From Eledone cirrhosa (Eukaryota), in contig OZ024742.1 of NCBI GenBank assembly GCA_964016885.1, positions 51,832,001 to 51,896,000 of the forward strand: a DNA stretch of 64,000 bases, written 5' to 3'. A model generated the notes under the pieces. It searched no databases and had not been told where the DNA came from. It worked only from the letters and a program-made list of their open reading frames with translations. The first letter of the stretch is position 1. Every line of letters starts with the position of its first letter. Positions 815-48,979 of the stretch are shown here, piece by piece. A program made the translations under genes and the position numbers.

Positions 815-1045
815 TAAATATGTTGGTAGATATACTAATTCTTTATAATTATCTCCAAATTATTTGTTGAGCGAAATTTTGCCTGAATTACTACTATGAT
901 TCATAGTAATATTTTGGCTACTGTCTTTTTAACACCCCACTCCTCACTGATTAACCTCGATGTCACGTGATTGATTCTTTTGAATTTGCCACTGACCGGG
1001 AAGGTAGTGAAATTTTCAGTGTCTTGAAATTTAGACCGCGCTTGC
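815..1045 (+). repeat. Diverged fragment of the 24413-25570 HHR-bearing tandem-repeat family
   Basis: tgtcacgtgattgattctt and atctccaaat...tttgttgagcgaaa match the reverse complement of about 24700-24900. Confidence 0.6.
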
Positions 1046-1106
1046 TTTTTTACATTCACTGAATTATTTTTGTTTGAGCTCCCTGTGTCTGCCTATCGCC
1101 AGGGAT

Positions 1107-1282: not shown

Positions 1283-1348
<66 letters not shown>

Positions 1349-2162
1349 TATTTTCCGTTGTGTTGTAATATAAATATTACACACAGTAGATTATCAGCTC
1401 ACGTAGAGTTTGCTCGACGGTTCCAGTTGTAGTTCCAAAAGTAATCCGGAGAAAAATAGAAAGATTTGAATGGATACAGTTTAGTTGAAAGGAATTTATT
1501 GACACGTGTTTCTATAACAGTTACATAACCTAAAACAGCTATCTACAAACTTTTAGTTATGCAGGCATTCAATATTTCAATGTTATTATTTACTGTCATT
1601 TCATCAGAATAATATTACTGAGGACCTATTTAGTTTTTATAGAGAATATTAAGAGGGAGGGGTGAAGTTGTTAGAAGAATAGGAGTGGTTTTTCGATAGC
1701 AGTGAGAATTCTTGGTGGCAGTGAGTAATTAGATTCCCATCTGTTGTTTTGGCATTTTTTATAGAATATATTATTGGTTATTTTTCTAAATCTATAGAAG
1801 GATTAGAGATAGTAAAGATATGCGTGGTTGGTTTTGTGTTTGCACTTAATTAACATTCAGACTTAAATTTTTCTTTCAAGTGTACGTATCCTTTCACCCA
1901 CGCATTCACACACAAATATATTTGCACACCTCTACAAAATACATATACTCACAATTCACATATTCATACTTACATATATATACACATGCATACACATATA
2001 TATACACACATGTATTCATATACATACATACGCGCTCATGTGTATACATTTTCATACTCAACTTATCTTTATATACACACGTATAGACACACTCATATAT
2101 ACATACATACTCTAGTCCATGTGTACACACATACACATACTTACACATCCATATACACATAT

Positions 2163-2273
<111 letters not shown>

Positions 2274-2588
2274 TACATACACATACATATACACACATAT
2301 ACATACATATATATATATAAGCACTTTAATACATGAATACACTTACATCTAACTATACACATCAAACATATATATATATTTACTTATTTATATACATTTT
2401 CACATATATATACATACTTATGGACGTTTTTAGACACATTCATTATCGCATATTTGTACCTATTCTCATCAGCATATCTTTTCATTATTAGTATGGTAAT
2501 TTAAGGTTATTAATATATGTTGAGAAGAGATTGTTTTTATATTTTTCTAACTAGATTAAGGTTTATATAGTTGGGGGATGTCCCTCTT

Positions 2589-3100
2589 TTATGTAATATT
2601 CGGCTTGTAGTGGGAAAAAAGGGTTTTAGTTCTCTGACGGCAGAATAATGTTCGTTCAATTCTGTTATTCAGCAGTTTCTTCTTGTGTGTGATTATGTAA
2701 TAAATCTCAAGATTACACAATTTGCAGAAATTTTGGCTCCTGGAAAAGCTTTGGGTTTTAGCTAATTTTTCCCATTTTAGGGTAAACTTTTGGTCGCTAT
2801 CCCTGAGCGTCCAAGCTTTTTCTGCTAAAGTTGTTACATTTCTTTGGCTCTGGTGTTTTATTGAGTAAGAATGCCTATACAATCGAGATTTAAACGATGT
2901 TGCCGTTGATCCCACGTAATACCACTCGTTGCCTCCGGATTTAATGGTACACTTATAAATAATATTTTTTTCCAGGCAGTTATTGCCGAGGGGGCAGTTG
3001 TCAGGATAGGTGCAGTTACAGTTGTATACGTTGGGTTTTCTCTGGAGTAGTATTGCGGACGAACTTAGGTGTGGTTTATTTATGTTCTGTAGTGTATTGT
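2589..3100 (-). pseudogene. PLE Cys linker and GIY-YIG endonuclease, out of frame with the RT at an A-run near 3107
   Basis: CNC-TYPDN-C-PLGNN-C, IIYKC...WYYVGSTATSFKSRLYRH, CKLCNLE. Confidence 0.85.
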
Positions 3101-4504
3101 CTACTGTTTTTTTGTGTTCTTTGTACTTAAGTTCTTAGTGTTTTCGTTTAACCTTCTAGTATTGATCTTTTTTATGTGTTGTTCAAGGTTTATCGCTGTA
3201 GAGTATGACAGTCTTATAGTGGTAGGGTTTAGGATTTTGTGGTATTTGTGTGATGTGGGAAAATGTCTTTTAATTATTTTAAAGAAGAGTACTGGTAAAT
3301 TTGTACTAATGGAACTATTGTATTCGGGGTTATACCATAAGTACTCTTTGCATCGCTTTCTATTAGTTTTGTTTGTTGGTTTACTGGTGTGCATACTATG
3401 GTAGTAAGTGTGGTTTGGTGTTGTGTTATTATATCTACCTATGTGGGATTTATTTTGGGTGTTTTGATTGTTCCCATCTATGTACTCTATTTTGTTGAGG
3501 TAGCCTGCTTTACTAAGGGCGTTATCGTAGTACTCGGCGTGTTCCTTAAATACTTGTATGTTAGAAGATAGACTCGAGATTCTAAGGGAAATATTTTTAG
3601 GGATAGATTTAATTATAGAGATGGGGTGGTTAGACCCAACATTTACGTATTTGAGATTTTCATTCAATTTATGAAACGGTTTAATCAAACGAGAGTTTAA
3701 ATTGAGTGTGACATCCAGGAAGTTAACTACTTTAAGGTTGTATTCATATGTTATAGTTAGTCCTATTTCGAGTAGTAGTTTTCTTATATCTTTGCGTAGT
3801 TTTTCTAGTTTTTGGTTATTAAGGTTTTTAGCTAGGAGGAGAACATCGTCGCGGTATATTCCGCCGTGGAGATTGCTGAATTTTTCCTGGAGTCTAAAGG
3901 CGATAAATAACCCCACAATATCAGTTATTTCCGCCGAATCGTTAGAGCCCATTGTTATGTCAAAGTTAGAGGGTCTATCTTTACGTACCCAATAACTGTT
4001 CTCAAATTTGACTATAGTTTTTCTAGCTTCTAATATAATCTTAATTTCATCGTTTGTAAGGTCAGAGTTATCCTTAGCAAACTTAATGGCTCTATTCAAA
4101 GTTTCAGGTGATATCGATGAGTAATATTCATCGATATCAAACTGGATAAACTTAGATTTATTCTTATTGCTAATGCTATTAAACCATCTTATTGCTTCTT
4201 GGGTCTTCCCCCAGAGTTTAATGTTAACTTTAGCCTTAATTTGGGGGATGATTCTATCTAAGATATATTTGCTTATTTTACCTATATCTGATTTAGAGGG
4301 GCAGATTAATCTAATTTTAGGGTCATTATCAAAGTTTACCTTGTGGTCCTTAAGATTGAAGGTGGGTACCGCCGGTAAGAGTGGTCCTGTCCTATCTTCG
4401 ATTCCGAGATTTTTCACTATTTCGCATGCCTCATCATTGATGTGCTTAAGGGTTACTTCACTCGTTTTTCTAAAAATAAGATATGCTGATGAGAATAGGT
4501 ACAA
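3101..4504 (-). CDS. PLE reverse transcriptase (5'-truncated; N-terminus derived from the inverted arm)
   Basis: KDHK..F...PKIRLICPSKSDIGKISK, QFDIDEYYSSI, FDITMGSNDSAE, GIYRDD, VNFLDVTLNL. Confidence 0.9.
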   Translation of the reverse strand: MYLFSSAYLIFRKTSEVTLKHINDEACEIVKNLGIEDRTGPLLPAVPTFNLKDHKVNFDNDPKIRLICPSKSDIGKISKYILDRIIPQIKAKVNIKLWGKTQEAIRWFNSISNKNKSKFIQFDIDEYYSSISPETLNRAIKFAKDNSDLTNDEIKIILEARKTIVKFENSYWVRKDRPSNFDITMGSNDSAEITDIVGLFIAFRLQEKFSNLHGGIYRDDVLLLAKNLNNQKLEKLRKDIRKLLLEIGLTITYEYNLKVVNFLDVTLNLNSRLIKPFHKLNENLKYVNVGSNHPISIIKSIPKNISLRISSLSSNIQVFKEHAEYYDNALSKAGYLNKIEYIDGNNQNTQNKSHIGRYNNTTPNHTYYHSMHTSKPTNKTNRKRCKEYLWYNPEYNSSISTNLPVLFFKIIKRHFPTSHKYHKILNPTTIRLSYSTAINLEQHIKKINTRRLNENTKNLSTKNTKKQ

Positions 4505-4541
4505 ATATGCGATAATGAATGTGTCTAAAAACGTCCATAAG
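4482..4541 (+). ncRNA. Degenerate hammerhead-like motif in the PLE1 pLTR (mirror copy about 2417-2476 minus)
   Basis: tatg-CTGATGA...taggtaca/tgtgtcta stem...AAAA-cg-TC-cata. G12 appears replaced by A and there are extra bases before stem II. Confidence 0.45.
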
Positions 4542-4690
4542 TATGTATATATATGTGAAAATGTATATAAATAAGTAAATATATATATATGTTTGATGTG
4601 TATAGTTAGATGTAAGTGTATTCATGTATTAAAGTGCTTATATATATATATGTATGTATATGTGTGTATATGTATGTGTATGTATATATG

Positions 4691-4791
<101 letters not shown>

Positions 4792-5348
4792 ATATGTGTA
4801 TATGGATGTGTAAGTATGTGTATGTGTGTACACATGGACTAGAGTATGTATGTATATATGAGTGTGTCTATACGTGTGTATATAAAGATAAGTTGAGTAT
4901 GAAAATGTATACACATGAGCGCGTATGTATGTATATGAATACATGTGTGTATATATATGTGTATGCATGTGTATATATATGTAAGTATGAATATGTGAAT
5001 TGTGAGTATATGTATTTTGTAGAGGTGTGCAAATATATTTGTGTGTGAATGCGTGGGTGAAAGGATACGTACACTTGAAAGAAAAATTTAAGTCTGAATG
5101 TTAATTAAATGCAAACACAAAACCAACCACGCATATCTTTACTATCTCTAATCCTTCTATAGATTTAGAAAAATAACCAATAATATATTCTATAAAAAAT
5201 GTCAAAACAACAGATGGGAATCTAATTACTCACTGCCACCAAGAATTCTCACTGCTATCGAAAAACCACTCCTTCAACTATTCTTCTAACAACTTCACCC
5301 CTCCCTCCTAATATTCTCTATAAAAACTAAATAGGTCCTCAGTAATAT

Positions 5349-5395
5349 TATTCTGATGAAATGACAGTAAATAATAACATTGAAATATTGAATGC
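5349..5395 (+). ncRNA. Second hammerhead-like motif in the PLE1 pLTR (mirror copy about 1565-1611 minus)
   Basis: CTGATGA-aatg...catt-GAAA-tatt; stem I and the cleavage triplet are imperfect. Confidence 0.45.
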
Positions 5396-5498
5396 CTGCA
5401 TAACTAAAAGTTTGTAGATAGCTGTTTTAGGTTATGTAACTGTTATAGAAACACGTGTCAATAAATTCCTTTCAACTAAACTGTATCCATTCAAATCT

Positions 5499-5587
<89 letters not shown>

Positions 5588-5619: not shown

Positions 5620-5677
<58 letters not shown>

Positions 5678-8360: not shown

Positions 8361-10974
8361 GTTTTTGGCAGTCGTATGAAGGAATCTAATGATTTATCGA
8401 TAGGTTTAATATATTACATCTTAAATTTATATTTAAACGTTGAATTTAATCTATGTTTGCAGCAACTGAAAAGATTGATCCTTAAATTCACAGAATTTTT
8501 GCACTTTAATATACAGAATATTTCCTCTATACAAAGAGCACAATTTACCGAAGAGGCGTTAAATGGGGGAGCTTTTGAAATAATATTCCAAAGTAAAGAA
8601 TAGTTAATGTTCTTTAATCTTAGGTCCCATAGTAAGCTAGATAGAGAAGTTGAAGTTTTTTTAATTTTTATTCGTAAAAGAGCATTTATGGTTATTAAAG
8701 CGGGATTTAAAATCTGTGGAAGTATAACCTACATAATTAAATGAATTTAAATTAGTTTTTACATTACAATTATATACTATATTTTTAGCTAAACAATTGG
8801 TATTTAACGGACAGTTAGATTTATTTCTACAGTTACATTTATCAAAATTCAAGTTACTAGGAGCCGTATTATTAAATTGGATAGTGCCGGGGTTGTTAAT
8901 GGTATTCTGGTTAGGTTTTAAGTTTCTATTATTAATTCTATTAATATTCTGCGCTAAATTACTGGTGGTTGAATAAGTCAATTTTATAGTATGTCTATTA
9001 AATATTGAGTAATATCTATGTGTTCTAGGGAAGCATTTGTCAAGAGCTTTAAAGAATAGTTTAGCAATAGGAGTTTTAATATTTAATGAGAAAGGAGTAG
9101 CGAACCATAATATATTCCTAGTTCTATTTCCTTTTTTGTTTTTCGATTTATTGTAAGGTTTTGTATTATAGTTGTTAAAATTATGGTTATTTATTATATT
9201 ATTATTATCAATATATTTAATTTTATTACTATATCCAGCTCTACCTAACGCTTCGTTGTAATGTTGTGCTGGATCTGCAGTTAAAATTAACGTACTTTAA
9301 GTTCTCGTTTAATTTGTGAAATGGATAATGAAGAGGTTAGTTAAGATTTAAGGTTACATCTAGAAAGTTAACTATTTTATAATTATTCTCTATTTCTACT
9401 TTAAGATTAAGGTAATTAAAAAATTGTATAATTTCTTTTCTTTTCCTCTTTAATTCAGTTATTATTTCCGATAAGTAATAGCATATCGTCGCGATATAAA
9501 CCTCCGGTCATCTCCGGTATTTTTCTGTGTAGAGTATTATTTATAAAAAGCCCCACAAGATCCGTTACCTGGGCGGAATCCGATGACACCATAGTGACAT
9601 CAAAATTATTATCTCTATCTGCTCTAGTCCAGAGTTGGTTGTTAAATTTAATTAATGTTTTCCGTGCCGTTATGATAATGTGCATTTCATTGCTAGTTAA
9701 GTCTGTATGTTTAAAAGCATATGTCAGTGCTTTATTAAATAGATTAGGAGTGATGGATGAGTAATAATTAGCAATATCCAATTGAATAAACTTATTATTA
9801 TAATTATATTTAATGTCTTTAAACCATTCGATAACTTCGTTAGTTCCTTCCCATCATTTTAAATAAGATAATTCCTTAATTTGTGGTATTATTCTGTCTA
9901 AATGTTCTTGCTAAGTATGCCAAGGTCCGATTTACATGGTGCAATTAATCTAACTGGTAAGTCAATTTCAAAGTTCCTTTTGTGGTCCTTCATATTAATT
10001 TTTGGTTACCTTGGCATGAAGGGTTGTGTCCTATTTCCAATGCCTAATTCCTGCATTATATAAAAAGCGTCTGTATTCAATTTTTCAAGGTCGTTATTAG
10101 TTGTTATCTTGTATTTCTTCCTTAATTCCTTTAATATAAGATTGTTATAAATATCCTTTTGTATTCCATAAAGATTATTGGTTTTGTCCGACTTGACTAG
10201 AGTTTTTTCGTTTTCTCCAAGTTTTCAATATTATTTTTGAGATTTCTTAAGTAATCCTGGCCTATGAAGTTTTTTTTTTTTAATTTAATGTTTTGAATGA
10301 TAGAGATGATTTCATTTCAAAATTCATTAGTAGTTTGTTGGAAGGTGGGTTTTTTTAGATTTGAAGATTCTATCAAGATTGGAAATATTCTCTTTTACAT
10401 CAGATTTATCGAAGTGGAAAGCACGCCACCTGATTCTTCTTATAAATGAGTCTGATTTTTCTATTAATTCTTTTATAAAGTCTTTATTCCCTGGTATAGG
10501 TATGTCCTTTAGAGAAGAAGAGATCTTAAAGAATTACATTATCATTCAGTTATAATATAAAGCGCTCGACATTAAAGGAGCAGAATATATGTAGAATGTA
10601 TATTTAATTTGTTGGGATACAACAAGCAAATATTTTTATAACTGATATAAAGCACTCAACAAATTTTTGGAGTAAAAATACAATATATTAACAAATGGAA
10701 ACTCTATTTATGAAACCATATTTATTTAATTATATATATTTCAAGGACACCAAAGCAAATTATGGTGCGCTTTCATCAGATAAAATAGAATATAGATCAG
10801 TTTTATAAACAAATATTGACATACCCATAATTTAAATGTATGGGATTTAAACCTTTCCGACACTAATTTGCATAATAATAAAATTAGTAACCCCACTATC
10901 GGGAGCTTCTAACCGATGTGGTTGCATTCTTTAAGGGTATGTCAATATTTGTTTATAAAACTGATCTATATTAT

Positions 10975-11033: not shown

Positions 11034-11190
11034 AAATAAATATGGTTTTATAAATATAGTTTCCATTTGTTATTATATTGTATTTTTACTCCCAAAATTT
11101 GTTGAGTGCTTTATATCAGTTATAAACATATTTGCTTGTTGTATCCCTAACAAATTAAATATAACTTCTACATATATATATATATATATA

Positions 11191-13295
11191 TTGTTATACT
11201 TGGGGAGGGTCATATTTGTGTAATATTGCCAGAATTAATAACAGAACACACTCACTGTTTGGTTGGTTTTCGCTTTTCGCTTCTGTGTCTTTTATATCAG
11301 TAATCTAATTTATTCGGTCCTCAATGTTGGCATTGACTAACCAACGGTCAAAAATAATACAGATACAATATAGACACAAACACATATATATAGTTTATTA
11401 AAGTTCTTTCGTTGCACATCTGCAACATCGTCAGTGGTGCTATTGTTTCCTCCCGTTACATTCTATGTCTACGCCATTTTTATTTAGTCTGTCTATATAT
11501 TTATTTATTTATTTGTTTGGTTGTTTATTTTATTTTGTCTTCTTTGCGCATGCGTTTGCGTGTGTGTATAGTGTTTTGTTTGATGTGTGTTCGTGATTGG
11601 GTGACTGTGTATCGGTTAATGTATTCTATCTTCTCTAGTGTGTATTTATATGTGTTTGTTGTTATTGTGCTTGTGTATGTATTTATTTATTTATGTATCT
11701 ATCTATTTATTTACTTATTTATACTTCTCTTAGGTCAGTGTTGTTTGTTTGGGTGCTGTTGTTATTTCATTCATTCTTTCTGTTTAGTCTTGGCCTTCTA
11801 AGTTCTATTTCACTGGCCTCTCTGATTTTCCTATCTGCTGGGTCATGTCTATGTTTAGATATTATTCTAATTTCTATGTTGTCTATGTTACCGTTGTGTT
11901 GTTGTCTGGCATGTTTGTATAGTACTGACCCGTTTTTTCGTCCTTTTAGTTCCCCCCAGTGTTGGTCTATCCTTTCACCTATGCTACGAGCTGTCTCGCC
12001 TATGTATGTTGTTGTCATGTTTCTGCAAGTACCCTCTGTACATCTTATGCAATAGACTACGTTTCTAGTTTTACAGTTTATCCGGGGGTTTACCTTACAT
12101 ATGATACATTTCCTATTAGTACAGTGGGTTTTCTTAAAAGGGTAGGTTTTGCTGATCAGGGATTTTATGGTGGTTCCTGCCTTTTCTACCACCTTAATCT
12201 TTAAGTGGGTCTTTCTCGGGGCCTTTCTACACTGGTTAGCTAATTTCCCTCCAGGGGTAGCGTCCACAAACATGACACTCTGGTATCTCTGGTTGTCGTA
12301 CCATGAGGTGGCTTTCCCTATCTTATGTCTAGCCCTATCTAAGCTATTCCATGATTTGCTCCTGTATAATGGGCAAATTCCTTTCATGTCCAGTTCTATG
12401 AGGGTCTTATACTTCTCCATGGCCCCTTCGTATACTCTGACTCTGTCTCTTTGGTTGTAGCCAGAGAACTGTATGATAACAACATACATAGGCGAGACAG
12501 CTCGTAGTATAGGTGAAAGGATAGACCAAAACTGGGGGGAACTAAAATGACGAAAAAACGGTTCAGTATTATACGAACATGCCAGACAACAACACAACGG
12601 TAACATAGACAACATAGAAGTTAGAATAATATCTAAACATAGAAATGACCCAGCAGATAGGCAAATCAGAGAGGCCAGTGAAATAGAACTTAGAAAGCCA
12701 AGACTAAACAGAAAGAATGAATGGAATAACAACAGCACCCAAACACACAACACTGACCTAAGAGAAGTATAAATAAATAAATAAATAAATAGATAAATAA
12801 ATAAATAAATACATACACAAGCACAATAACAACAAACACATATAAACACACACTAGAGAAGATAGAATACATTAACCGATACACAGTCACCCAATCACGA
12901 ACACACATCAAACAAAACACTATACATACACGCAAACGCATGCGCAAAGAAGACAAAATAAAATAAACAAACACACAAATAAATAAATAAATATATAGAC
13001 AGACTAAATAAAAATGGCGTAGACATAGAATGTAACGGGAGGAAACAATAGCACCACTGACGATGTTGCAGATGTGCAACGAAAGAACTTTGATAAACTA
13101 TATATATGTGTTTGTGTCTATATTGTATCTGTATTATTTTTGACCGTTGGTCAGTCAATGCCAACATTGAGGACCGAATAAATTAGATTACTGATATAAA
13201 AGACACAGAAGCGAAAAGCGAAAACCAACCAAACAGTGAGTGTGTTCTGTTATTAATTCTGGCAATATTACACAAATATGACCCTCCCCAAGTAT

Positions 13296-13300
<5 letters not shown>
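11191..13300 (-). mobile_element. PLE3: 5'-truncated Penelope-like element with 828-bp inverted arms
   Basis: Arms 11191-12018 and 12473-13300. The minus-strand ORF part 11767-12470 encodes the C-terminal region with a Cys linker and GIY-YIG (VVYCIRC...YIGETARSIGERIDQH...RKIREA). (TA)n on both flanks. Confidence 0.9.
13053..13094 (+). ncRNA. Hammerhead motif in the PLE3 pLTR (mirror copy 11397-11438 minus)
   Basis: CTGACGA-t-gttgca-gatg-tgcaac-GAAA-gaac-TT-tg; stem I is weak. Confidence 0.7.
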
Positions 13301-13377
<77 letters not shown>

Positions 13378-18290: not shown

Positions 18291-21200
18291 TTCTTTATTT
18301 ACCATAAAGGCATAAAAAGAAGGGACAAATACAAAGGGGGAGTTTACATAAAACCGAGTAAAAAGGGTATAAAATGAAAATAATCGAAAACAACCTCAAA
18401 AGGGAGGGGACGTGATAGGGGTTGCACACACCCTCGAAAAAGTGTGCAATCCTTTGCCCGGTGAGCACATGGAGAAGGGCTCCCCTCTCCTTCACTTCTT
18501 TACTCACAGGATGGTATACAGAGAAGGCCCATTTACACGAGCCATTCTCGTCACTATCACCCACCTTTCATAAAACTGCCTGTGGCCAAGCACCTCTCTC
18601 TCCATTCTTATCCTTCTTCCGAAGTGATATCGGAAGAAGTAGACCAGACTATGGCCAGAGGTGAAGTTGCCTGACCTCAAACCTTTCAATCGTGTCCACC
18701 AAACAACCTCTTTCAACATGGCTATTGCGCACAGAAAAACCGCCTTTGCTTCCTTTGTGAAGAGGGGAGGCGGCTTGATTGTCACCACAGACTCGGCGGT
18801 CAATCGAATCGGCGCCACCCGCGACAGCAGTCGTTCGGCGTAGCCCCACAGATCAGCCACGCCCGGACATTGCACGAATGCGTGCACAACGGTTTCTTCG
18901 TGACGCACGCATCTAGGGCAAATCTTTTTCGAGGGATCCCTGCCCGGGCGCCCGTGTCTGTAGAGCCTCTCTCGAACGGGTAGAGCCCCCCGGTAGCACT
19001 GCCAGGCTAGTGACTTCTGGAAGTTGTCCATTGGTCCCGGGCCGAAAGTCCTACCGAACAGGCTGGCCCTCTTCCATGTCCAGCGACTCTCCAAGGGTGT
19101 CATCGCCCCTGCTAGCCACCAGCCCTCTATAGAATGATGAGGTGGATTCTCCACCGATGGCCGGGCCCGCTTGCCAGAGAGCCCTGAGCGCTTGGGCACA
19201 CTCAGTGTGCCAGTCACCCAGTTTTCCGGATCTTTGCTTCACCCAGGACTGCAGCTCGGTGAGCGAGACAAGTCTCGGAAAGGCCCGTTTCACGAACCGG
19301 TTGACCAGTGAGGAATACCTGTAGGTGCCGTCGCCTTAATGCGTGCCTACGCATCATTAACCACGGCATCCCCAGCCCTCCTTTCGAAGGTTGTTGGCAG
19401 CAGATGGATCTTCTCACCATAGGGAGAGCGCTTCTTCCAAAGAAATTGGAAGAGCATGCGTTCCATGGTGGTGAGTCTTTCCTTAGGGCAAGGCACGACA
19501 GTCAGGCGGTAGTAAGTGACGGACGCTATGTAAATGTTCGCCACCTCCGCCCGACCTTTTAGGGACAGCTTACACTTGGCCCATTTCTGGGTTAGTGCAA
19601 ACACCTTGTTCGTAACCTCGTCCCAGTTCTTTTCCACCTGGAGGTCCGGTCCAAACCAGACCCCAAGCAACTTCAACGGGCCCTCCGTCCAGTGTCCGAC
19701 GAAACCATCGGGAGGCATCGGTTACCTCTCCACGTTCTGAGTTGCAGCCCGATGGATTTTTCCCGGTTCAGTTTCGCTCCTGACAACCTTTCGTAATCCT
19801 CCAGTAATGTACCGATCGCCTCGATCTCCGAGTCGGTCGATACCATTACTGTTACGTCATCGGCGTAGGCCGACACCGCTTTGCTCAATCCTGGTTCCAG
19901 GGGGATACCCTGCAACAACTCCAACTTCCTCAGTAATGGCTCGAGAGTCAATGCATACAGAAGGAGGAGAGAGGGCACCCCTGTCGAATGGATCGTGTGA
20001 TTTCGAACGACTTCGAAAGGTAGCCGTTCACCTTGATCCTAGAACAGATGTGGTTGCTATGTAAGGCAGTGATCCAGCCTCTGAAAACAGGACCAAACCC
20101 AGCCGCCGCTAGCACCGCAACCAGGTAACCATGGTCGACCCTATCGAATGCGTTAGACTGATCCAAGTTGATCAGGGCCCCACCGAAGCCGGGTTTGTTG
20201 CCAACCCTCTCTATGATGTATCGCATGAGGTGGAGGTTATCGTGAATGGACCTGGATGGGATAACACATGTCTGCGCATCTCCCACCAGGCCACCCACGA
20301 CAAGCGCCAACCTCTTTGCTAACACCTTGGCCAAAATCTTTAACTCTGTGTTTAGCAGGGTTATGGGCCGAAAATTATTTATACTATCCCCCTTGTTCTC
20401 GTCCTTCCTCACCAGAGAGACTACGCCCTTGGCTACAGAACAAGGAATTCTCCTGTTCTGCTGCCAATTGCAGTAGACCGCTTCGAGGAGTTCGGAGAAG
20501 AAGACCGGCATTGCTAAATAAAGTTTGTAAGGTATACCATCGAGAATGGAGATTTGCGTCTGCTGCATTGGCTCAGCGCATCCCCGATCTCATCAGCCGA
20601 GATTGGTCCCTCGCAGGACTCTGCCTCTTGGATCGAGAGACTCGGCAGGCCGTCGAGGTATGGGCCGAAATCCACGTCCCCGCCCGGAACCTCCCCCCCC
20701 CCCCGAATAATCGGGCAAAGTGCCTTTGAAAGGCCTCGTACATCTGCTTAGGCTCCCGGATTACCCGTCCATCCTCGTCTTGCAAAGCCGGATGGTGGAT
20801 CGATTTCCACTCTTAGCTTCTGTCACGCGGGCCTAGCCAACGGCTTCGGCCCCCTCATTACCTAGAGCACGTATTTTACTTCGAATGACGCAGCCTTCGT
20901 GCTTTGCATCGAAAAACTGGCTCAAGGCCGTCCTCGATGCCAGCACTCTGGCCACATCTTCGCTCTTGATTGCCTCTTCCAATTTACATGTTAATTCTTT
21001 CTCGTTTCTATTCCTATCGGCAGCTAACATCTTGCTATAACTTATTGATTCTGTTCTAATCTCTCTTTTGAGAGATCCCCACCATCGGTTGTTGACGATT
21101 GCACCCGTTAACCTATCCTTAACTAATCTGCTAATCCGGTTTCTGTAAGTCTCTTTTGCCGGTAAAGACAAATTAAGTTTCCAGTAACCGGGACCCTGTT

Positions 21201-24091
21201 TATGTGTTTTCTCAAGATTGACTACGCAGGTCACTAATTTGTGATCCGTATAGCCAAACGTGAGCATTTCTGGACAGCTTAATATGTCCCTATCCTTACT
21301 TCTAACTAAGAATCTATCTAAGTACGATCCAGATTGACCACTGTGGTTCGTCCAAGTCCAGGTTGGCACAGTTGGAAAATCTAGTCGATATCTATTGACC
21401 AAGTTAAAACGGCCGAGTAACCCCTTGAGGCTGTTACACCCCTCTATTAGGACATGCTCCTGCATAGTCCCAACGTGCATCTAGGATGTCATTCCAATCC
21501 CCCGCTAGAGGCAGGGAACGCGACGTTCCCAGAAAAGTCTCCAGACGCTTGAAGAAGTCGGGTCGTTCAGCTCCGAAAGGGGAGTAGACGGCGACCAGTC
21601 TCAAGGCCGCACCTTCACTACTGCCAACGTCTAGCACCAACAAACGACCCTCCGGGTCCGAGTGAACAACCTGTACGGCGAGACCCAGGTGTTTTTCCAG
21701 CAGTACGACAACCCCACCCCCACCTCCAGGTTGACAGAGAGATGCATGCACCTCAAAGTCATCGAAGGTAGGGGCCAGCTGCCGCACGACGCTGATCCGA
21801 GTCTCACAGATAACCATTACATTTATACCACGTGACCTGAGGTCATTTAGAAGCTTTGCTTGCTTCCAAGTTGAGCCCAGGCCACGTGCATTCAAACATC
21901 CTACTCTTAACACATCCATGTGGGCGGCAGAGCCAAAGGAGAGTGTAGAGACCTACCTTTCTGCTTCCCGGGTTCGGGTCGCACGACTTCCATGGGGTAG
22001 GGGGTGTTGGGTGAAGGGGTATCTTGTGGTGGTGTGGGGTCGTCAGTGTGTGGTGGGGTTGGGGTGTTTGGAGTTGTGTTGGGGAGGGGAAGGGGAAGGG
22101 GAAAGCTTTTTAGTAGGACGCGGTTTATGGGTTTGACAGAGGGTGGTCCTACGTCCTCTTTAAAATCCTTTTTTAGTTTTTGGTAGAGGTTCATTGGGAT
22201 CTTTATTAATTTTAAATGTGGGTAGTTTTCTGAAGAAACAAAGTTTACACCTTCGGTTTGTACCGAAGAGTTATTGTTTATGAGTTCATTTAATTCATTA
22301 TTGTTTCTGTTGATGTAAGTATAGTGTAATGTCTTTTTTTCGGATGGTGTGAGTGTTTCGAAGAGGGGAGGGGCAGGTTTTATTTTGTTTGTTGCTGGAG
22401 GGGTGTTTTGTATTTTGTTGGATTGTGTTGACATTTGGGTAGGGGTTGTTTGGCTTTGTGTATGTTTTGCACATGTTTTCTTTTTTTCCTTTTAATCTGT
22501 CTGAAGGACTCCGTTTCTTCCTCCGAATTCGTTGGGTTGTCTTCGGTGTTGGAGGGAAGAGGTATGTTTGCTGGTAATGTTTCCGTGTTGATTTTCTTTG
22601 TGGGGGAGATGGATGTCACTATGTTAGACTGTGTTGTGTGTTGTGGCTGCGGTGGTTGTGTTGTTTTATTGAGTGAGGGGTTGGGTGAGACTGTGTTTTG
22701 TTTTTGGGTAATGTGTTGTGACTGTTTGTGTTGTGGTGGTGGTGTAGTTTTACTGAGGGACGGGTTGGGTGGGACTGAGTTTTGTTGTTTGTTTATCTGT
22801 TGTGGCGGTGGTGGAGCTGGTGTTGGTAGCAGGGTTTTCTTCTTGTTGAGTTGGGGACAAGCCGCCTTCAGGTGCCCTCTGCCTGCACAGATATGACAGG
22901 ACGGCCTTCTCCCCTCCACGCTAATGTTTATATATCCGTGGCCCTCTAATAGGATTCTGTCGGATATTTGGGCAATGCGTTCAGGCTTCATTTGCACTAC
23001 AAGTTCTATACCTGTTCCACTGAACGCATTGCCTGTGGTTTTCCCAATGGAAAGCACGTTGTCATTCGCTGGATCGATGAAGCCAGCTATGAGCCAGCAG
23101 TAGTTCACATCTGGCATCATCGCATCCAGCCATATGCGCTGAGTTCTTTTACCCATATAAGATGGATAAAAGGTAAAATTTGTCGAACGAATCGGCGACA
23201 AAGCATATTTTTTGCCGCCGATTCGTTCTTCATAATAATCTCTAAGCTTCCATACAGTCTGTCTCTCCTTATGAAAGTGGTTTCATTAAGTACTTCTGTA
23301 AGTACTGCTTTGATTTCTGTTTGTGTTGGTTGTTGAGGTTTTTTAGAAATGTTGTTGATGGTGCGGAAAACGACCGTCCGACTTTCAATGTCTTTGGTGA
23401 GTCCTTGAGGCATTTTTACCGATAAAATACCATTTTCCCCTTGAGTTATGTATTGTCTGGCGTTTTTAATTCTTTGTGCCACATCTGAAATATTTTCAGG
23501 TATATATGTCAAAGATTTCTTTGTTGTTTGTGCAAATGAAATATTATTGGTGTTGACTTTGTCGTCTGCTTTGCTTTCTGCTATGATGTTGTTTTCAAAT
23601 GTTATTTTTGTGTTTGTTGTGTCTTTGTTTGTGGTATTAATATTGTCATGCAATTTTTCAAATTTTTTTTTTTTGTTGTTGGAATCAATGTCCAGATTTG
23701 TGTTTTCGTCATTTTTCTCCACACATTCGTCTGTTTTTATTTTATTTTTTCTTTCCTTCTCTATGACGTTAGTTGGGAAGGAAGGGGGGGGACTAAAGCG
23801 TGCGAGCTTACAACTCTTACAGCTGTCCCCCCACCACTATTTTCTTAGCTTCTTTTAACATTTCTGTCAGACGATTGAAATTTTATGCCACAAAATTTTT
23901 AAAAACAGGTTTTTCATCCCTGGGAGGGGCGAAGATGAGCTGACCCACCGCCTGACAGTTCAGACGGGGGATCAAGCTGCACAATAGTATCAAAATTAAA
24001 ATTGAACTTACAAAATTTCCGCAATAAATTGGAACAAAACTTCTGCGCGAAGTGAATTACATCTGCGCTGTAGAACAGACGACAGCTAGAT
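18291..24091 (-). mobile_element. Full-length decayed L1/Tx1-type LINE, subfamily I, inserted in (TA)n
   Basis: ORF1 pieces 23722-21907 with a CCHC knuckle (CHICAGRGHLKAAC). ORF2 pieces 21919-18504 include APE (LNARGL, GDWND, SYLD, TDH), RT (FRPITLLN, RQGCPLS, AYADD) and a C-terminal CxxC..H..C motif. AATAAA precedes the TA tail. Confidence 0.92.
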
Positions 24092-24238
24092 TATATATAT
24101 ATATATAGATAGATATATAGATATATATAAATATGTATAATATATATATGTATAAATAGTAAACAGAAATTACAACAGAATCGGTACAGTATATGGAAGG
24201 AATATATTAGATTAACGTTTGAAATAGCAGGAAGAATG

Positions 24239-24274
24239 TCTTAACATTTCGGACGCTAGTCCTTCATCAGAAGA
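24239..24274 (-). ncRNA. Minimal type I hammerhead in a ~200-bp non-coding element (about 24150-24365)
   Basis: tctt-CTGATGA-a-ggac-tagc-gtcc-GAAA-tg-TT-aaga. Confidence 0.85.
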
Positions 24275-24363
24275 AAGAATGAGAAATAATAAAGATTGAA
24301 GGGACGGGTGGGTGGAATTGGAAAAAATGTCTTTAGATAAAAATAACAGGTCCATTCATGTGG

Positions 24364-24423
<60 letters not shown>

Positions 24424-24500
24424 CGTAAAATAAGAAAATATTTTTTTAAAAAAATTTTTTTTTAATTTTTTTAAAAAATTTTTTACTTACTTAAATTTTC

Positions 24501-24582
24501 ACTCCAACTAATTAGTTTCTGCAATGGGATAAAGACAGTTACGTAATCCAACTGTCGAGAATTCATTGCGTCATCAGGGAGT
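24501..24582 (-). ncRNA. Type I hammerhead ribozyme, unit 1
   Basis: actcc-CTGATGA-cgcaatg..gacagttg/taactgtc..cattgca-GAAA-ctaattag-TT-ggagt. Confidence 0.88.
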
Positions 24583-25058
24583 CTATTCTCAGTTAAGTCT
24601 CCAGGCAATGCGCGGACACTGGCGGCTCATATAAAAATAATAATAATTCGGTAGATTGAACAGCTTGCGAGGACTGGATTCTATGTACCGAAATTCTCAC
24701 TGCTTCAAGTCAAATGGCCGATTCTAAAGAATCAATCACGTGACACAGAGTCTAGTTAGAAGGAATGGGATGGTAAGATGACTGACGCCTACTAACACCC
24801 CCAAAAAAAGTTTTTTTAGAAGTGGTTTTGGCAAGTTTGCTCGACAAATCAGTGATTTGGAGATAAAGATAGATAATTTAATATATCAACTAACATAAGC
24901 GCACAGATGCACGCCCATGCTAGCAAATACACAGGTTATGTCATAGTACCTAGGTGGTTCAATGCAGGAGAATGCAGAACAATAATATAAAAGACGTAAA
25001 ATAAGAAAATATTTTTTAAAAAAAAATTTTTTTAAATTTTTTACTTACTTAAATTTTC

Positions 25059-25140
25059 ACTCCAACTAATTAGTTTCTGCAATGGGATAAAGACAGTTAC
25101 GTAATCCAACTGTCGAGAATTCATTGCGTCATCAGGGAGT
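25059..25140 (-). ncRNA. Type I hammerhead ribozyme, unit 2
   Basis: Identical to 24501-24582, 558 bp away. Confidence 0.88.
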
Positions 25141-25584
25141 CTATTCTCAGTTAAGTCTCCAGGCAATGCGCGGACACTGGCGGCTCATATAAAAATAATA
25201 ATAATTCGCTAGATCGAACAGCTTGCGAGGACTGGATTTTATTTACCGAAATTCTCACTGCTTCAAGTCAAATGGCCGATTCTAAAGAATCAATCACGTG
25301 ACACAGAGGCTAGTTAGAAGGAATGGGATGGTAAGATGACTGACGCCTACTAACACCCCAAAAAAAAAGTTTTTTTAGAAGTGGTTTTGGCAAGTTTGCT
25401 CGACAAATCAGTGATTTGGAGATAAATATAGATAATTTAATATATCAACTAACATAAGCGCACAGATGCACGCCCATGCTAGCAAATACACAGGTTATGT
25501 CATAGTACCTAGGTGGTTCAATGCAGGAGAATGCAGAACAATAATATAAAAGACGTAAAATAAGAAAATTTATATATTAAATTA

Positions 25585-25685
<101 letters not shown>

Positions 25686-25690
25686 GTGTG

Positions 25691-26278
25691 TGTGAAAAAT
25701 ATGGGGAGAAGAATACTGCATGGTTGCACATGGATTACATGTTATAAAAGGACTCCCTCATCAGTGATTTGCCAACGATCATTGGTATTTCATCGTATTA
25801 AAAATCATATACCTCACGTTGGTGCGATAATAACTAAAATAAGTTATTAGGACAATTGAAACGCGTAAAGCGAGTGAGACAAGTAAACAACACAGGGGAA
25901 AGCTAACCGAAGATAGAATGAAACACAAGCAACATGATTATTCTGTCAGTATAAGCTGTGTGAATATATGGGCGACTAGAAATAGACATTCCGCTAGTGA
26001 ATCCGATGTAAGAAAGAAGGAAAATCGTTTTCGTAGCGAACGGGGGGAAGTGAGAAGGGGAGAAACAGAGAGTGAGTGAGTGGAAGTGCGAGGAAGAGGT
26101 CAGTAGAGAGAAAGTGTTAACTTACATGACAGAGGGGACGAAAGAAAGTAAGAGAAACAGAGAGAACGAGGGAGCAGTAAGAGAGAAAGAGAGAAACTCA
26201 GAATCGCAGTTTAGGTAAATATATGTGAAAAATATGGGGAGAAGAATACTGCATGGTTGCACATGGATTACATGTTAT

Positions 26279-31499: not shown

Positions 31500-34400
31500 C
31501 TTTCTTTATTAACCACAATGGTCTACATAAAGTAGAAATTAAGGACAGTACAGGACAATACAGGGCGGTACAAATGGGCATTTCTGCGTGTAAAAAACAA
31601 GAAACAGAGGATGTCATAATAGAACAATGAAAAAATTCCCCAATAATGGGGAGCCTTCCGAGGGACATTCGTGGAGAAAGTCCATTAGAAAGCCACATTG
31701 ACCCTGACCACCAGGGCAAGTGCCCTCTCCCAGTTTTCCACCTTTAATTTAAAGACACATACTCGGAGTAGGCCCATTCACTCGGGCCAATCTTGCGTCT
31801 CTCACCCATCTTTCAACAAAATGCTGGGAAGAGAGCACTTCCCTTTCTACCCTGATTTTCCTTTTCAAATGAAATTTGAAAAAGTTATTCAGGGCATCAC
31901 CGAAGAGGTAACTGCTCGTCTTCAGCCCTTTCAAACATGTCCACCATACTATCTCTTTCGCCATGGCCACCAGACAGATAAAAACTGCCTGCCCTTCCCG
32001 GCTAAAGGAAGAGGGCGGGGCAATCCTCACGGTGGACTCAGCTGATAGCCGGATCCGTCCTACACGCGACAGCAGGTGTTCGACATAAACCCACCCAGTC
32101 AGTAACGCTCGGACACTGGACGAGTGCGTGCAGAACGGTTTCGTCGCCCTGCGCGCATCACAGACATGCCCGGCTAACGGCACCTCCATGCCTGTAGAGT
32201 TTATCCCGAACTGGCAAAGCTCCTCGGTAGCACTGCCAGGCCAGGGATTTCTGGAAGTTGTCCATAGGCCCCGGCCCGAAAGTTCTTCCGAAGAGATTGG
32301 CTAGTTGATTTTCGTCAGCGCCTAGAGTTTCCCCAGGTACGAAGTCGCTCTTCCCCTCCACTAATCCTCTATAGAACGCCAAGGTGGAGTTTCCACCGAT
32401 CACATTGCCCGATTGGTCGAGGGCTGTGAGCGCCTGAAGACATTCCAGTCTCCAAGCGATCCATCTCAGTCTTCGCTTGACCCAGGACTGCAGCTCCGTC
32501 AAGGAGACGAGCTGGGGAAAGACGCGTCTAGCAAACGGACACCACACCTGATCACCGTCGAGGAAGAGGTGGGGATGTCGTAGCCTGAGCGCATGTCTGC
32601 GCATCATCAGCCACGGCATTCCCAGCCCTCCACGTAGCGGGTGTTGACAGCAGATGGACCGCTTGACCATCGAAGCGCGTCCCTTCCACAAAAAGCGAAA
32701 GAGCAAACGAACCAGACCCCGAACAATTTAACCGGTCCGTCCGTCCAGCGTCCGACGACGCTGTTGGACGGCATGGACCTGCCTCTCCAGGTGCCGAGCT
32801 GCAGGCCCACTGACTTTTCCTGGTTGATCATTGCTCCTGTCACCGCTTCGTATTTTCTTAGTGTAGTGCCGATCGCCTCGATGTGTTTGGCGTTCGACAC
32901 CACTACGGTGACATCGTCAGCATATGCTGACACGGATCTTCCGCATCCTAGTTCGCGCGGGACGCCCCTCAACGTCTCCAGTTTGTGCAGTAATGGCTCG
33001 AGAGTCAATACGTACAAGAGGGACGGGAGGGGACATCCTTGGCGGACGGAGCGCATCATGTTGAACGGTTCCGACAGGTGACCGTTCACTCTAACCACAG
33101 AGCAGATGTCGCTGTGCATGGCAGCGATCCAGCCTCTGAAGACGGGCCCAAAGCCAGCCGCCCTCAGGACTGCCGCTAGGTAACGATGGTCGACCCTATA
33201 GAAAGCTTTCGACTGATCTAAATTGATCAAGTACCCACCCGTGCCAGGTTCCCTAGCTACCCTCTCTACGATGTATCGCATGAGTTGGAGGTTGTCGTGG
33301 CTGGATCTGTCGGGATGGCGCATGTCTGCGCCTCTCCCACCAGACCACCAACGACAAGCGCCAACCTCTTTGCTAGCACCTTGGCCAAAATCTTGAACTC
33401 TGTGTTTAGCAGAGTTATGGGCCGGAAATTATCTATGTTATCCCCCTTGTTCGGATCCTTTCTCAGCAGTGCCACCGCTCCTCGGCTCACAGAACTGGGA
33501 ATTCTCCCGTTCTGTTGCCAGTTGCAGTAGACGTACTCCAAGAGGCATTCGAACAAGTCTGGGATCTGTACGTAAAGTTCATAGGGCAGACCATCCAAAC
33601 CAGGCGATTTACCCCTTGTGCACCCAGTCATTGCCTCCCTTACTTCAACAGCTGTTATCGGATTTTCGCAACACTTCACCTCAGTGGCCGAGAGCCGCGG
33701 CAGTCCGTCGAGGTAGACACTAAAGGCAATCCTTCGACCCGGCCCACCGCTGCCCCCGAACAGCTGAGCGATGTGTCGCTGTAAAGCTTCACACATTTTC
33801 CCGGGATCGAGTAGCATGCGCCCGTCGTGGTCCACCAAAGACCGGATCGTGGCTTTGTTGCCACGACGCGCCTCCGCCACTCGGGCCCATTGAACGGCTT
33901 TCGTCCCCTCGTGTCTGAGAGCACGCACCCTTGATCTGACAACGCAGCCTTCGTGCTTTGCATTGAAGAATTGGTCAAGGGCCAATTCCGCCGCAAGCAC
34001 GTCGGTCGCAATGCCTTTGCAAAGCGCCTCGTCTAATTTTGTAACTAGTTCTCCCTCTGCTCTATTTTTCTCTATTGCTAAAGCCTTACTAAACCTAATC
34101 GATTCTATTCTAATCGCTCTTTTCAGAGCAAACCACCACTTGTTGTTGACGATGGCCCCCGTCAACGCCCGCTTAACTAGTTCGCTAATCCGGTCTCTGT
34201 AGGCCTTACTCGCTGGTAAGGAGGCTTTTAGCTTCCAGTAGCCGGGTCCTTGTCTATGAAGCCTATCTAAGTCAAGCACACAGATCACGAATTTGTGGTC
34301 CGTGTAGCTGACTATCTTGAATTGTGGACAGCCTATGCTAGACCTATCTATTCCCCTTAAAAATACTCTATCTAGATATGATCTGGATGACCCTATGCGA

Positions 34401-35578
34401 TTTGTCCAAGTCCACATTGGCACATTCAGGAAATCCAATCGGTACCTGTCAGACAGTTCAAAATGCCTGAGCAGGTTGGTGAGGCTCTTGCACCCTCTAC
34501 CCCTATCCGCTAATCCCACACAGTCCTAGCGTGCATGTAAGATCCCGTTCCAGTCGCCCACTAACACTAAAGAGCGGGACGTTCCAAGAAAGGTCTCCAG
34601 ACGCCGGAAGAAATCAGGCCGCCCTGCTACTGTCAAAGCATAGACGGCCACTAGCCTGAAAGCTTGCCCGTCTCCGCTGGTCACGTCCAGCACCACCAAC
34701 TTAGCCTCTGGGTTCAGGAAGATGGCCCGTATGGCGAGATCCCAAACCTCTTCGAAAAAGCACAGCAACTCCTTCCCCCGATCCAGGACGGCTGGGAGAT
34801 GTGTACACATCGTAGCCGCCGAAGATCGGTGCGAAGGCCCGTGATTCGGAGATTCTTGTCTCGCTGATGGCCACTACATCTGTGTTTAGTGACCTGAGGT
34901 CGTTGAGCAAGTGACCCTGCTTCCATGACGACCCCAAGCCACGCGCATTTATGCTGCCTATTCTGAGTGAGGTCATGTTTAAAATAGAGTGGAAAAGATG
35001 GGAAAGACCACTTACCGTACTTTTCGTAGAAGAGGGTTTGTTTTTCCATCCCTTTTCACTTGATCGTCTGGTGAAGGGATCGTTGAATCGTCTCTTCGGC
35101 TGGTCGTCGGCTCTTCTATGAGTATGTCCGAATATACTCTTCGGTGGATAGTTCCTCCTAGGTCTCTGAAATCACCAACTGCGTTGGGGAATTTCGTTTT
35201 GATGTTTGTGTATTGTTTCTGTGCTATTTTTAGCAGTCTTATGTTAGTTGGCGTTTTGATTGGTGCTGGTATTATGTAGTCGTGTTGTGAAATGTCTGTG
35301 TGTTCAATTATGTAAGTCATTAGTTTCTTGTTGTGTGTATTTATTGCCGTGCATTTGTTTTTCTGGGGGTGGGGTGTGGTTCTGCTATTTTCTTGTCGTT
35401 GTTGCTGGGTGTGTGTGTTTGCGATGTTGGTGCTTGTGGTGGTGGTGTTGAAGGTGTTGTTGGCGGTGGGGTTGTCGCCGGTGGTGATGGTGGTGCTAGT
35501 GTGGGTGGTGATGGTGTTGGTGGTGTTGCTGCTGTGGGTCTCTTTGCAGTAGACTTTACCCTTTTTTTCATTTCTTTA
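31445..35578 (-). mobile_element. L1/Tx1-type LINE subfamily II, copy A (5'-truncated in ORF1) with (ATT)n tail
   Basis: APE, RT and C-terminal ORF pieces 34976-31749; (AAT)n at 31445-31497. Confidence 0.92.
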
Positions 35579-36940
35579 TTAACCACAAGGGTTTACATAA
35601 AGTAGACATTAAGGACAGTGCAGGACAATGCAGATCGGTACAAATGGGCATTTCTGCGTGTAAAAAACAAAAACAGAGGATGTAACAAAAAATAACAATG
35701 AAAAATTCCCCAATAGGGGGGGAGACTTCGGAGGGACATTTGTGGAGAAAGCCCAGTAAAAAGCCACAATGACCCTGACCACCAAGGCAAGTGCCCTCTC
35801 CCAGTTTTCCACCTTTAATTTACAGATATATACTCAGAGTAGGCCCATTCACTCGAGCCATTCTTGCTTCTCTCACCCATCTTTCAACAAAATGCTGGGA
35901 AGAGAGCACTTCCCTCTCTACTCTGATTTTCCTTTTCAAATGAAATTTGAAAAAGTCAATCAGAGCATCACCGAAGAGGTAAGTGCTCGTCTTCAGCCCT
36001 TTCAAACGTGTCCACCATACTATCTCTTTCGCCATGGCCACCAGACAGATAAAAACTGCCTGCCCTTCCCGGCTAAAGGAGGAGGGCGGGACAATCCTCA
36101 CGATGGACTCAGATGATATCCGGATCCGTCCTAAACGCGACATCAGGTGTTCGACATAAACCCACAAGTCAGCAATTTTCGGACACTGGACGAGTACGTG
36201 CAGGACGGTTTCGTCGCCCTGTGCGCATCTCGGACATGCCCGGCTGACGGCACCTCCATTCCTGTAGAGTTTATCCCGAACTGGCAAGGCTCCTCGGTAA
36301 CACTGCCAGGCCAGGGATTTCTGGAAGTTGTCCATAGGCCCTGGCCCGAAAGTTCTTCCGAAGAGATTGGCTAGTTGATTTTCGTCGACGCCTAGAGTTT
36401 CCCCAGGTACGTCGTCGCTCTTCCCCTCCACTAATCCTCTATAGAACGCTGAGGTGGAGTTTCCACCGATCACATTGCTCGATTGGTCGAGGGCTGTGAG
36501 CGCCTGAAGACATTCCAGTCTCCAGGCGCTCCCTCTCGGTCTTCGCTTGACCCAGGACTGATCACCGTCGAGGAAGAGGTGGAGATGTCGTAGCCTGAGC
36601 GCGTGCCTGCGCATCATCAGCCACGGCATTCCCAGCCCTCCACGTAGCGGGTGTTGACAACATATGGACCGCCTGACCATCGGAGCGCGTCCCTTCCACA
36701 AAAAGCGAAAGAGCAAACGCTCCAGCGCAGTCAAGCGAGGCTTAGGACAAGGTACGACGGTCAGGCGGCAGCAGATGACAGACGCGATGTACGCGTTAGC
36801 CACCTCCGCTCAACCTTTCAGGGATAGCTTCCTCTCCACCCATTTCTGGGTGAGAGAAGCCACCCTGCTCGTCACCTCGTCCCAGTTTTTGTCCGTCTGG
36901 AGGTCCGGACCGAACCAGACCCCTAGCAATTTAACCGGTC
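35572..36940 (-). mobile_element. L1/Tx1-type LINE subfamily II, copy B (3' 1.4 kb)
   Basis: ORF 35820..36803 is the ORF2 C-terminus; the 3' UTR is fused directly to copy A. Confidence 0.9.
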
Positions 36941-37006
36941 ACTGGTTGTGATTTGGTGATAACATGTATGAATATAAAGGAAGATAAATGAAAATAATAA
37001 TAGTAA

Positions 37007-37125
37007 TATTATTATTATTATTATTATTATTACAGTTACATTTATCTTTCTTCTTCTTCTTCTTCTTCTTCTTCTTCTTCTTCTTCTTCTTCTTCTTCTT
37101 CTTCTTCTTCTTCTTCTTCTTCTTC

Positions 37126-37160
<35 letters not shown>
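37007..37160. repeat. Compound (ATT)n/(TTC)n microsatellite
   Basis: Direct reading of the sequence. Confidence 0.95.
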
Positions 37161-48784: not shown

Positions 48785-48979
48785 AAAAAGTATGACCCCG
48801 ACGGCAGAGCTAAAACCGTTTCGACGGCTGTTTCTGGACCAGTCCAGAAATAGCCGTCTAAACGGCTTGAGCTCTGCCGTCGGGGTCATACTTTTTCCAT
48901 TTTCCCACTCTACTACCCTAAGTATTGAGTACTCTGGTGCGTTATGGTCCATGTGGTTCCTCACCTCAATTCCTTTGTT
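48781..48979 (+). mobile_element. ~200-bp hairpin-plus-tail element, copy 3
   Basis: Hairpin 48783-48898 and the same tail; TA runs on both sides. Confidence 0.85.

Follow-up and report, generated by a model that had tools for sequence, protein, structure and literature searches.

Title: A tandem hammerhead repeat of Eledone cirrhosa, probably copied into (TA)n tracts by a Hydra-type Penelope enzyme

The window studied here is the whole stretch of 64,000 nucleotides (nt) from Eledone cirrhosa contig OZ024742.1, positions 51,832,001 to 51,896,000 of the forward strand. At 24414..25591 it contains a tandem array of a 558-nt non-coding repeat that bears hammerhead motifs and lies between two (TA)n tracts. 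By the DNA-level definition, this array is a retrozyme without long terminal repeats (LTRs), that is, a non-LTR retrozyme. Its parts, in window coordinates, are the following.

24366..24418, no strand: left (TA)n target tract, overlapping the first bases of the element (Tandem Repeats Finder and junction reading)
24414..25570, minus: long arm, about 2.05 laps of the unit; the RNA sense is the minus strand
24501..24582, minus: type I hammerhead motif 1, predicted cut 24506/24505
24506..25063, minus: the single whole cut-to-cut monomer, 558 nt
24736..24744, minus: GTCACGTGA block, with a second copy at 25294-25302; kept in families A, B and C
24957..24989, minus: start site 1, with UAUAU at 24985-24989, a 4-nt spacer and bulged hairpin 1 at 24957-24980; second copy at 25516-25548
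25059..25140, minus: type I hammerhead motif 2, predicted cut 25064/25063
25399..25430, minus: start site 2, with UAUAU at 25426-25430, a 4-nt spacer and bulged hairpin 2 at 25399-25421
25572..25591, plus: short inverted second arm, 20 nt, whose RNA sense is the plus strand (blastn E 1.7e-5)
25586..25685, no strand: right (TA)n target tract (Tandem Repeats Finder array 25571-25685)

An earlier, sequence-only reading of this DNA had described two near-identical units and the start of a third inside TA runs. This description holds: the units start at 24414, 24985 and 25544, and units 1 and 2 differ in the alignment by 7 substitutions and by indels in A/T tracts. The 558-nt repeat length is also right as a spacing, both from cut to cut and between the palindromes at 24507 and 25065, but the array contains one whole cut-to-cut monomer only. 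The long arm has its primed end at 24414/5 (site 1, RNA position 79 counted from the cut) and its far end near RNA position 56. At the right end, the inverted arm had been overlooked. Its 20 nt match exactly the RNA immediately 5' of site 2, and its end is identical to that of other site-2 arms. Both flanks are (TA)n, as seen in the comparison for target-site duplications. The other window copy of start site 2, at 24840-24871, has UAUCU in place of UAUAU. The A/T tract after the cut (25006-25050 and 24430-24485) differs in length between units even when these are otherwise identical, and the G+C content of 24001-26000, flanks counted in, is 31.7%. The 558-nt monomer folds more stably than its shuffled versions (z -4.0; none of 100 shuffles is as stable).

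The unit is non-coding, as previously stated. All three RNA-sense frames are broken by stops, and no open reading frame (ORF) of 200 amino acids is present in the array. The unit matched the Penelope proteins of the window no better than E 0.7, and the locus maps, in which tRNA primer-binding sites were not searched for, contain no LTR pairs. Since the array has no ORF combining reverse transcriptase (RT) and GIY-YIG endonuclease, it is not classed as an autonomous Penelope-like element (PLE). A block of about 20 nt around GTCACGTGA is near-identical in families A, B and C (see below) despite 20-30% divergence elsewhere; it is possibly an internal promoter element or an RNA structure, with GTCACGTGA as a candidate E-box. 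Because two hammerheads enclose one whole unit and the conserved GTCACGTGA lies upstream of the first, the window copy could in principle release a monomer.

Both units contain the identical type I motif on the minus strand, with 5/5 pairs in stem I, the core elements CUGAUGA and GAAA and a GUU triplet. Stem II has 6/6 pairs behind a C.A mismatch, and stem III is a 10-nt palindrome. In this respect the hammerheads, their palindromic stem III and their cut positions are as first described. No Rfam model reached its gathering score in the window, and within 24300-25700 no hammerhead was returned at E<=10; hence the hammerhead call rests on the motif and its covariation. The core pattern has 10,039 exact matches genome-wide, against 0 for the reversed control. 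Over 23 distinct stems, 125 of the 138 stem II cells are paired, whereas shuffles gave a mean of 106 and a maximum of 117, and none of 2000 reached 125, in a statistic that ignores kinship among the stems. Pairs were counted from anchored motifs, the MAFFT alignment of the hammerheads having put stem II out of register. All four Watson-Crick pairs occur at the second position of stem II. This covariation indicates that the hammerhead fold is likely under selection. The unit RNA is thus far a predicted self-cutting ribozyme; the palindrome duplex scores -9.0, and cleavage may depend on a dimer or on a protein. No RNA run was listed as containing the unit, and four sequencing runs with a small share of its sequence words gave no match at 80%, a comparison outside which lay three listed runs with at least half of the words; these results do not bear on expression. 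Arm ends at the cut site were considered as a possible trace of in vivo cleavage: of 64 ends, 3 fall within about 4 nt of it, where a uniform spread predicts 1.0. They were rejected as evidence, because 21 of the 64 lie within 40 nt and the loci had been picked for full-length matches.

The window copy belongs to a young family whose members are 97-99% alike (family A), itself part of a superfamily with about 10,000 hammerhead matches. With one unit as query, 1,232 first-look candidates were obtained; 39 were scored, giving 137 matches, of which the full-length ones are 97-100% identical. We mapped 37 fetched loci together with the window copy (38 loci, taken by best match) and 21 family-A loci first-listed on C1, a set that avoids choice by similarity. 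Sister families B and C have 521-nt units, with starts at 61/179 and 62/174, respectively. One of their members lies in the window:

815..1103, plus: sister family C fragment (521-nt unit family), without hammerhead and without both ends

The sequence-only reading had taken a diverged relative at 815 as a sign of a dispersed family. The relative is real, with 66% identity to the array unit over 303 columns (E 3e-28, opposite orientation), and the family is indeed dispersed. Young copies at L035, L049, L050, L061, L146 and L152 (our locus labels) occupy the TA tract flanking an older relative, so that the elements pile up.

None of the copies examined contains its own coding frame. Arrays are up to 15 units long (L032), and in about 130 distinct loci mapped by BLAST no unit runs into its own ORF; copies that are always monomeric pseudo-LTRs on a Penelope ORF, which the sequence-only reading had set against its own proposal, were not seen. 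These data bear on the idea that the units began as solo pseudo-LTRs of an autonomous Penelope element and were later amplified locally into satellite DNA. Such a route is discussed in 10.64898/2026.07.22.740005, and the higher-order variant pattern of L031 suggests local expansion. We nevertheless consider this origin very improbable, since the young insertions are dispersed, with primed ends of their own and inner junctions that are unique; A, B and C each have a closed period of 521-558 nt; and among the listed genome-wide matches to the hammerhead pattern, tandem spacings of 471-571 nt recur. Moreover, no young ORF-bearing element ending in an exact unit was found among the loci read.

Most copies of the family consist of two inverted arms. 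Their primed ends lie at position 79 (site 1) or at about 199-201 (site 2), numbered from the cut, and nearly always abut (TA)n. Genomic copies had been expected to start at variable permuted positions; instead, the primed ends are fixed at the two sites and the far ends alone vary. The proposal that the array ends are permuted relative to the cut is therefore retained for copying across the cut, but not for the left end, which is a start site fixed family-wide and not a chance permutation. With primed ends at two fixed sites, the offset from the cut reflects Penelope-like internal priming, not circularity by itself.

The two sites are used one per arm in 71 of 73 readable two-armed loci, counted by hand from BLAST maps with ambiguous loci omitted. 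The best matches of family A obey this rule in 26 of 27 two-armed loci (38 loci, 11 single-armed), the exception being L067, which uses site 2 twice. The loci first-listed on C1 give 14/14 (21 loci, 5 single, 2 ambiguous), family B 12/12 (26 loci, 11 single, 3 ambiguous), family C 11/12 (27 loci, 13 single, 2 ambiguous) and other subfamilies 8/8 (20 elements, 8 single, 4 ambiguous). The same rule holds for the window copy, whose long arm comes from site 1 and whose 20-nt inverted arm comes from site 2. In 15 of 27 loci neither arm is shorter than 558 nt, and the longest arm reaches 8,393 nt. None of 150 crossings of the cut site shows an indel, 149 being exact and 1 having a substitution; template jumping from one cut end to another was rejected on this ground. 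Inner junctions are spread around the unit, mostly with an overlap of 0-6 nt or a gap of at most 5 nt, and are mostly asymmetric. Overall, tandem and inverted arm, one-ended tail and microsatellite target make up an insertion of the Penelope type.

In LINE-1 twin priming, both ends of the break prime on one RNA, which leads to an inversion, and the two arms abut on the RNA. The retrozyme arms, unlike these, overlap widely, and an arm ends at the start of the other in 1 of 27 loci (L052).

The two arms of a locus also carry the same haplotype. Units in the same insertion differ by 0.003 on average, whether on the same or on opposite arms, as compared to 0.0085 between loci. Over 29 loci the arm-to-arm distance is 0.0023, against 0.024 for permuted pairs, and over the 22 young loci it is 0.0016 against 0.0058; in both cases 0 of 5000 permutations reached the observed value. 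A shared haplotype would also be expected if the two arms were made from two separate RNAs of one source locus, and this would avoid displacement of cDNA between polymerases. Independence alone would not yield one start of each kind in 71 of 73 loci, and we hold two RNAs to be unlikely. An inverted arm made as a fold-back copy of the first cDNA, or by self-priming on antisense RNA, with the tail resulting from endonuclease resolution, was proposed for rotifer Penelope elements (PMC3846280) and would agree with the near-symmetric inner junctions of L034, L048, L085 and L106. The asymmetry of most junctions argues against it. At four loci (L153, L128, L068 and, for its second element, L146) neither arm was copied from its partner, since each contains sequence missing from the other one; furthermore, the protein of the Anolis Poseidon element extends both strands in vitro (PMC11167929). 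Fold-back copying thereby becomes scarcely more credible than the satellite origin discussed above.

The two start sites share a signal on the RNA. UAUAU or UAUA, matching the TA target, is followed after 4-5 nt by a hairpin of 3-4 pairs with a bulge of 2 pyrimidines on its 3' side, and by a further stem. Hairpin 1 of start site 1 is predicted with pair probabilities of 0.82-0.98. Like hairpins are found in Penelope-like elements of the Hydra type, two families of which have a copy in the window:

1338..5504, minus: PLE-a, a young autonomous family of the Hydra type and one candidate mobiliser; truncated copy with two arms, at 1338-4472 (minus) and at 4478-5504 (plus)
8429..10515, minus: PLE-d, decayed copy of a second Hydra-type family, another candidate mobiliser

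PLE-a has an intact 785-codon frame and a period of 3,596 nt; an intact frame is present at L198. Its copies have a mean identity of 98.7% (45 matches), and a search with a piece of its endonuclease returned 40,709 first-look candidates, of which all 150 scored are identical in protein. The protein shows RWK, DKT, a CxCx5C linker, no CCHH and a C-terminal endonuclease, and the element targets (TA)n. RWK, DKT, CxCx5C and the lack of CCHH are given as Hydra clade features in PMC8557442, and the placement of PLE-a in this clade is by these motifs, read from its protein, and not by a tree. Pfam gave no name to the Penelope frames of the window. The starts of PLE-a lie 45 and about 162 nt beyond its cut, with one of each in 5/5 two-armed maps, and this spacing of about 117 nt compares with 112-120 nt in the retrozyme. 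Both PLE-a start sites and retrozyme site 2 carry CUC-C...G-UC-GAG-CAA. Two further Hydra-like families, PLE-d and PLE-e, served as a control (12 loci each); their ends, too, bear like hairpins, spaced by about 92 and by 101-104 nt.

Two instances of the bulged-hairpin pattern are present in each of families A, B and C, PLE-a and PLE-e, and one in PLE-d; of 7 other end regions with a hammerhead, 1 has the pattern. The joint hairpin pattern, drawn up after inspection of the sequences, has 6,407 matches, against 1 in the control; the first 100 rows comprise 98 members of the retrozyme superfamily and 2 of PLE-a. The shared hairpins thus likely name the enzyme group that moves the retrozyme. As judged from sequence, PLE-a is the candidate partner that fits best by spacing and age. 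For comparison, the 2020 review of animal retrozymes holds that they bear no motif indicating their mobiliser (PMC7761336). A direct parent element was also sought and rejected: PLE-a has no long similarity to A, B or C, and 0 of 20 other-subfamily loci enter an ORF. In this parent search the ends of PLE-d and PLE-e were compared by eye and by pattern, and other Hydra families lay outside it.

One locus joins a retrozyme relative and a Penelope frame. At L258:1600-6768 (G000:C1:391885000-391894900), an arm of a sister family passes, at unit position about 400 and via a shared TATATA, into the whole ORF of PLE-e. The opposite arm starts at retrozyme site 2, and the 3' end of the element is lost in a long TA tract. 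This joint may have arisen by a template switch in one event, by nested insertion or by deletion.

From these data, we read the array as one insertion of a young non-coding hammerhead repeat, likely copied into (TA)n in trans by a Hydra-type Penelope RT-endonuclease, and give this reading a probability of about 0.8. Copying round a circle is a more tentative matter. In the scheme that we put forward as a possibility, a Hydra dimer would sit on the two hairpins of one 558-nt circle made by the ribozyme, and both (TA)n ends would prime, which amounts to a double rolling-circle insertion. For the copying itself, the likely course is the following. The unit would first be transcribed. The Hydra enzyme, probably as a dimer like that modelled for the Anolis element, would bind both bulged hairpins of one RNA and cut both (TA)n strands. 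Each DNA 3' end would then pair with the UAUAU that closely precedes a hairpin, and both would be extended. The two cDNA 3' ends would finally be joined via a few bases of microhomology, and a one-armed copy would result when the second end stays unprimed.

Regarding the template, both starts lie within 200 nt of the cut, so that a whole unit can only come from RNA unbroken across it, and a cut linear monomer would give a stub. Several variants are private to a locus and shared there by all units that span the position: 317G (L032, 15 units), 406T (L035) and 108G (L036). Others are fixed in one or two loci, namely 522A (L042, L043), 356C and 398C (L054, L057) and 376A (L045). Seven variants fixed across whole arrays indicate a bottleneck of a single unit.

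Several observations weigh against this reading or parts of it. The isolated motif has a catalytic fold of -18.1 kcal/mol and a competing fold of -22.8, its triplet is GUU, and a C.A mismatch opens stem II; among predicted Xenopus retrozyme dimers, only 1 of 9 cleaved in vitro (10.64898/2026.07.22.740005). Hairpin 1 shows one compensatory pair, G-C/A-U, which 34 of 2000 shuffles reach, and hairpin 2 is without covariation; the hairpin patterns are post hoc, as stated. No long stretch of PLE-a can be aligned with units A, B or C. Moreover, the hairpin is common to three Hydra families, so that the signal indicates the clade and does not fix the partner family. A recount of start sites by regular expression was noisier than the manual one, with 55 one-each pairs, 4 same-site calls (3 judged false) and L118 missed. 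Seven variants are present in only part of the units of their array (L031 twice, L033, L034, L035, L040, L054), and that of L040 occurs in one unit of each arm; such partial sharing requires later conversion or a multimer template. Finally, insertion of the Anolis element did not require hammerhead cleavage, and uncut RNA was its main substrate (PMC11167929).

The last two points speak for a reading in which an uncut or partly cut linear multimer, transcribed from a genomic array, serves as template for the same enzyme at the same starts. The hammerhead would then be weak or serve for end-trimming, and no circle would be needed. This alternative, which we rate on a par with the double rolling-circle scheme, explains the exact cut junctions equally well, and the autonomous PLE-a likewise has arms of more than 2 laps. 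On the other hand, a new variant should reach one unit only, yet seven are fixed array-wide; daughter arrays could only be shorter than the parental one; and stem II is maintained by compensatory changes across subfamilies. Because variants are fixed in up to 15 units and linear copying is unable to lengthen arrays, the balance tips slightly towards a ligated monomer circle as the usual template, with the uncut multimer as main alternative.

In animal genomes such an element is nothing unusual, and its insertions have the textbook Penelope shape (PMC8557442, PMC3846280). It resembles animal non-LTR retrozymes in its non-coding tandems, one type I hammerhead per unit, low G+C content, dispersal and co-occurring Penelope-like elements (PMC7229834, 10.64898/2026.07.22.740005). 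The unit falls within the 51-972 bp range of the latter source and is larger than coral, mussel and axolotl retrozymes (220-390 nt). Unlike the animal retrozymes described in these texts, it has a long stem II that lacks a short loop 2, inverts one arm of its two-armed insertions, starts at fixed sites and has a motif in common with a named autonomous clade. With Hydra-clade elements it shares partial tandems, an inverted 5'-truncated arm, a one-ended tail, (TA)n targets and a hammerhead near the end; it differs by the absence of an ORF from the unit and by a tail of 112-120 nt, against the 30-40 bp described (PMC8557442, PMC3846280). The hammerheads of Penelope pseudo-LTRs are alike in their palindromic stem III for dimer formation, long helix II and extra nucleotide after A9 before a G-C pair, but the extra A before G12, the 10-nt palindrome and the GUU triplet set the present motif apart (PMC4209133). 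Anolis Poseidon in vitro shows two internal starts at a stem-loop, an AT-rich target and a predicted dimer, as here; its protein cuts and extends both DNA strands, as would the enzyme of the retrozyme. The Anolis start lacks homology to the cut DNA, and no strand-to-site rule was seen for it, whereas the retrozyme starts match (TA)n over 4-5 nt with one site per end (PMC11167929).

That retrozymes derive from and ride on Penelope elements has already been proposed, with arguments from co-occurrence and end similarity. Our literature search, outside which lay most subscription journals and supplements (where drawings of Penelope ends may be found), returned no account of the one-each rule, the hairpin signal or a structure. 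What the present data add is the start signal in a family that encodes no protein, together with a haplotype shared by the two arms and copying over several laps on each of them. They bear on two questions, which enzyme moves animal retrozymes and how the Penelope inverted arm with its one-ended tail originates. If true, double rolling-circle insertion would explain the inverted arm and the one-sided tail, and the hairpins would be the first identified mobilisation signal for animal retrozymes. A retrozyme family of thousands of copies and an intact young PLE-a in the same genome offer both the enzyme and the RNA for the in vitro assay already published.

Other elements were noted in the window and at the loci. 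Another hammerhead motif lies at 48400-48560 (minus), with the palindrome CTCGAG and an A.A mismatch, near Penelope-type frames of a different family at 50489-53162 (minus); no bulged hairpin of the Hydra kind follows its cut. A third Penelope-type family, with inverted arms and a frame that resembles GIY-YIG by reading of the translation, occupies 11169-13322 and 1104-1345, and a piece of it interrupts the family C fragment. At L253, an unrelated tandem family with a period of about 516 nt, a minimal hammerhead and inverted arms is seen at about 5050 (minus) and at 5630 and 6146 (plus). LINE-like frames are present at 18504-23836 and 31648-43013, the second of which is a large inverted pair, and RT fragments at 300-815. 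Finally, 58437-58809 and 48979-49388 contain a 123-nt tandem within a dispersed repeat of at least 300 nt.
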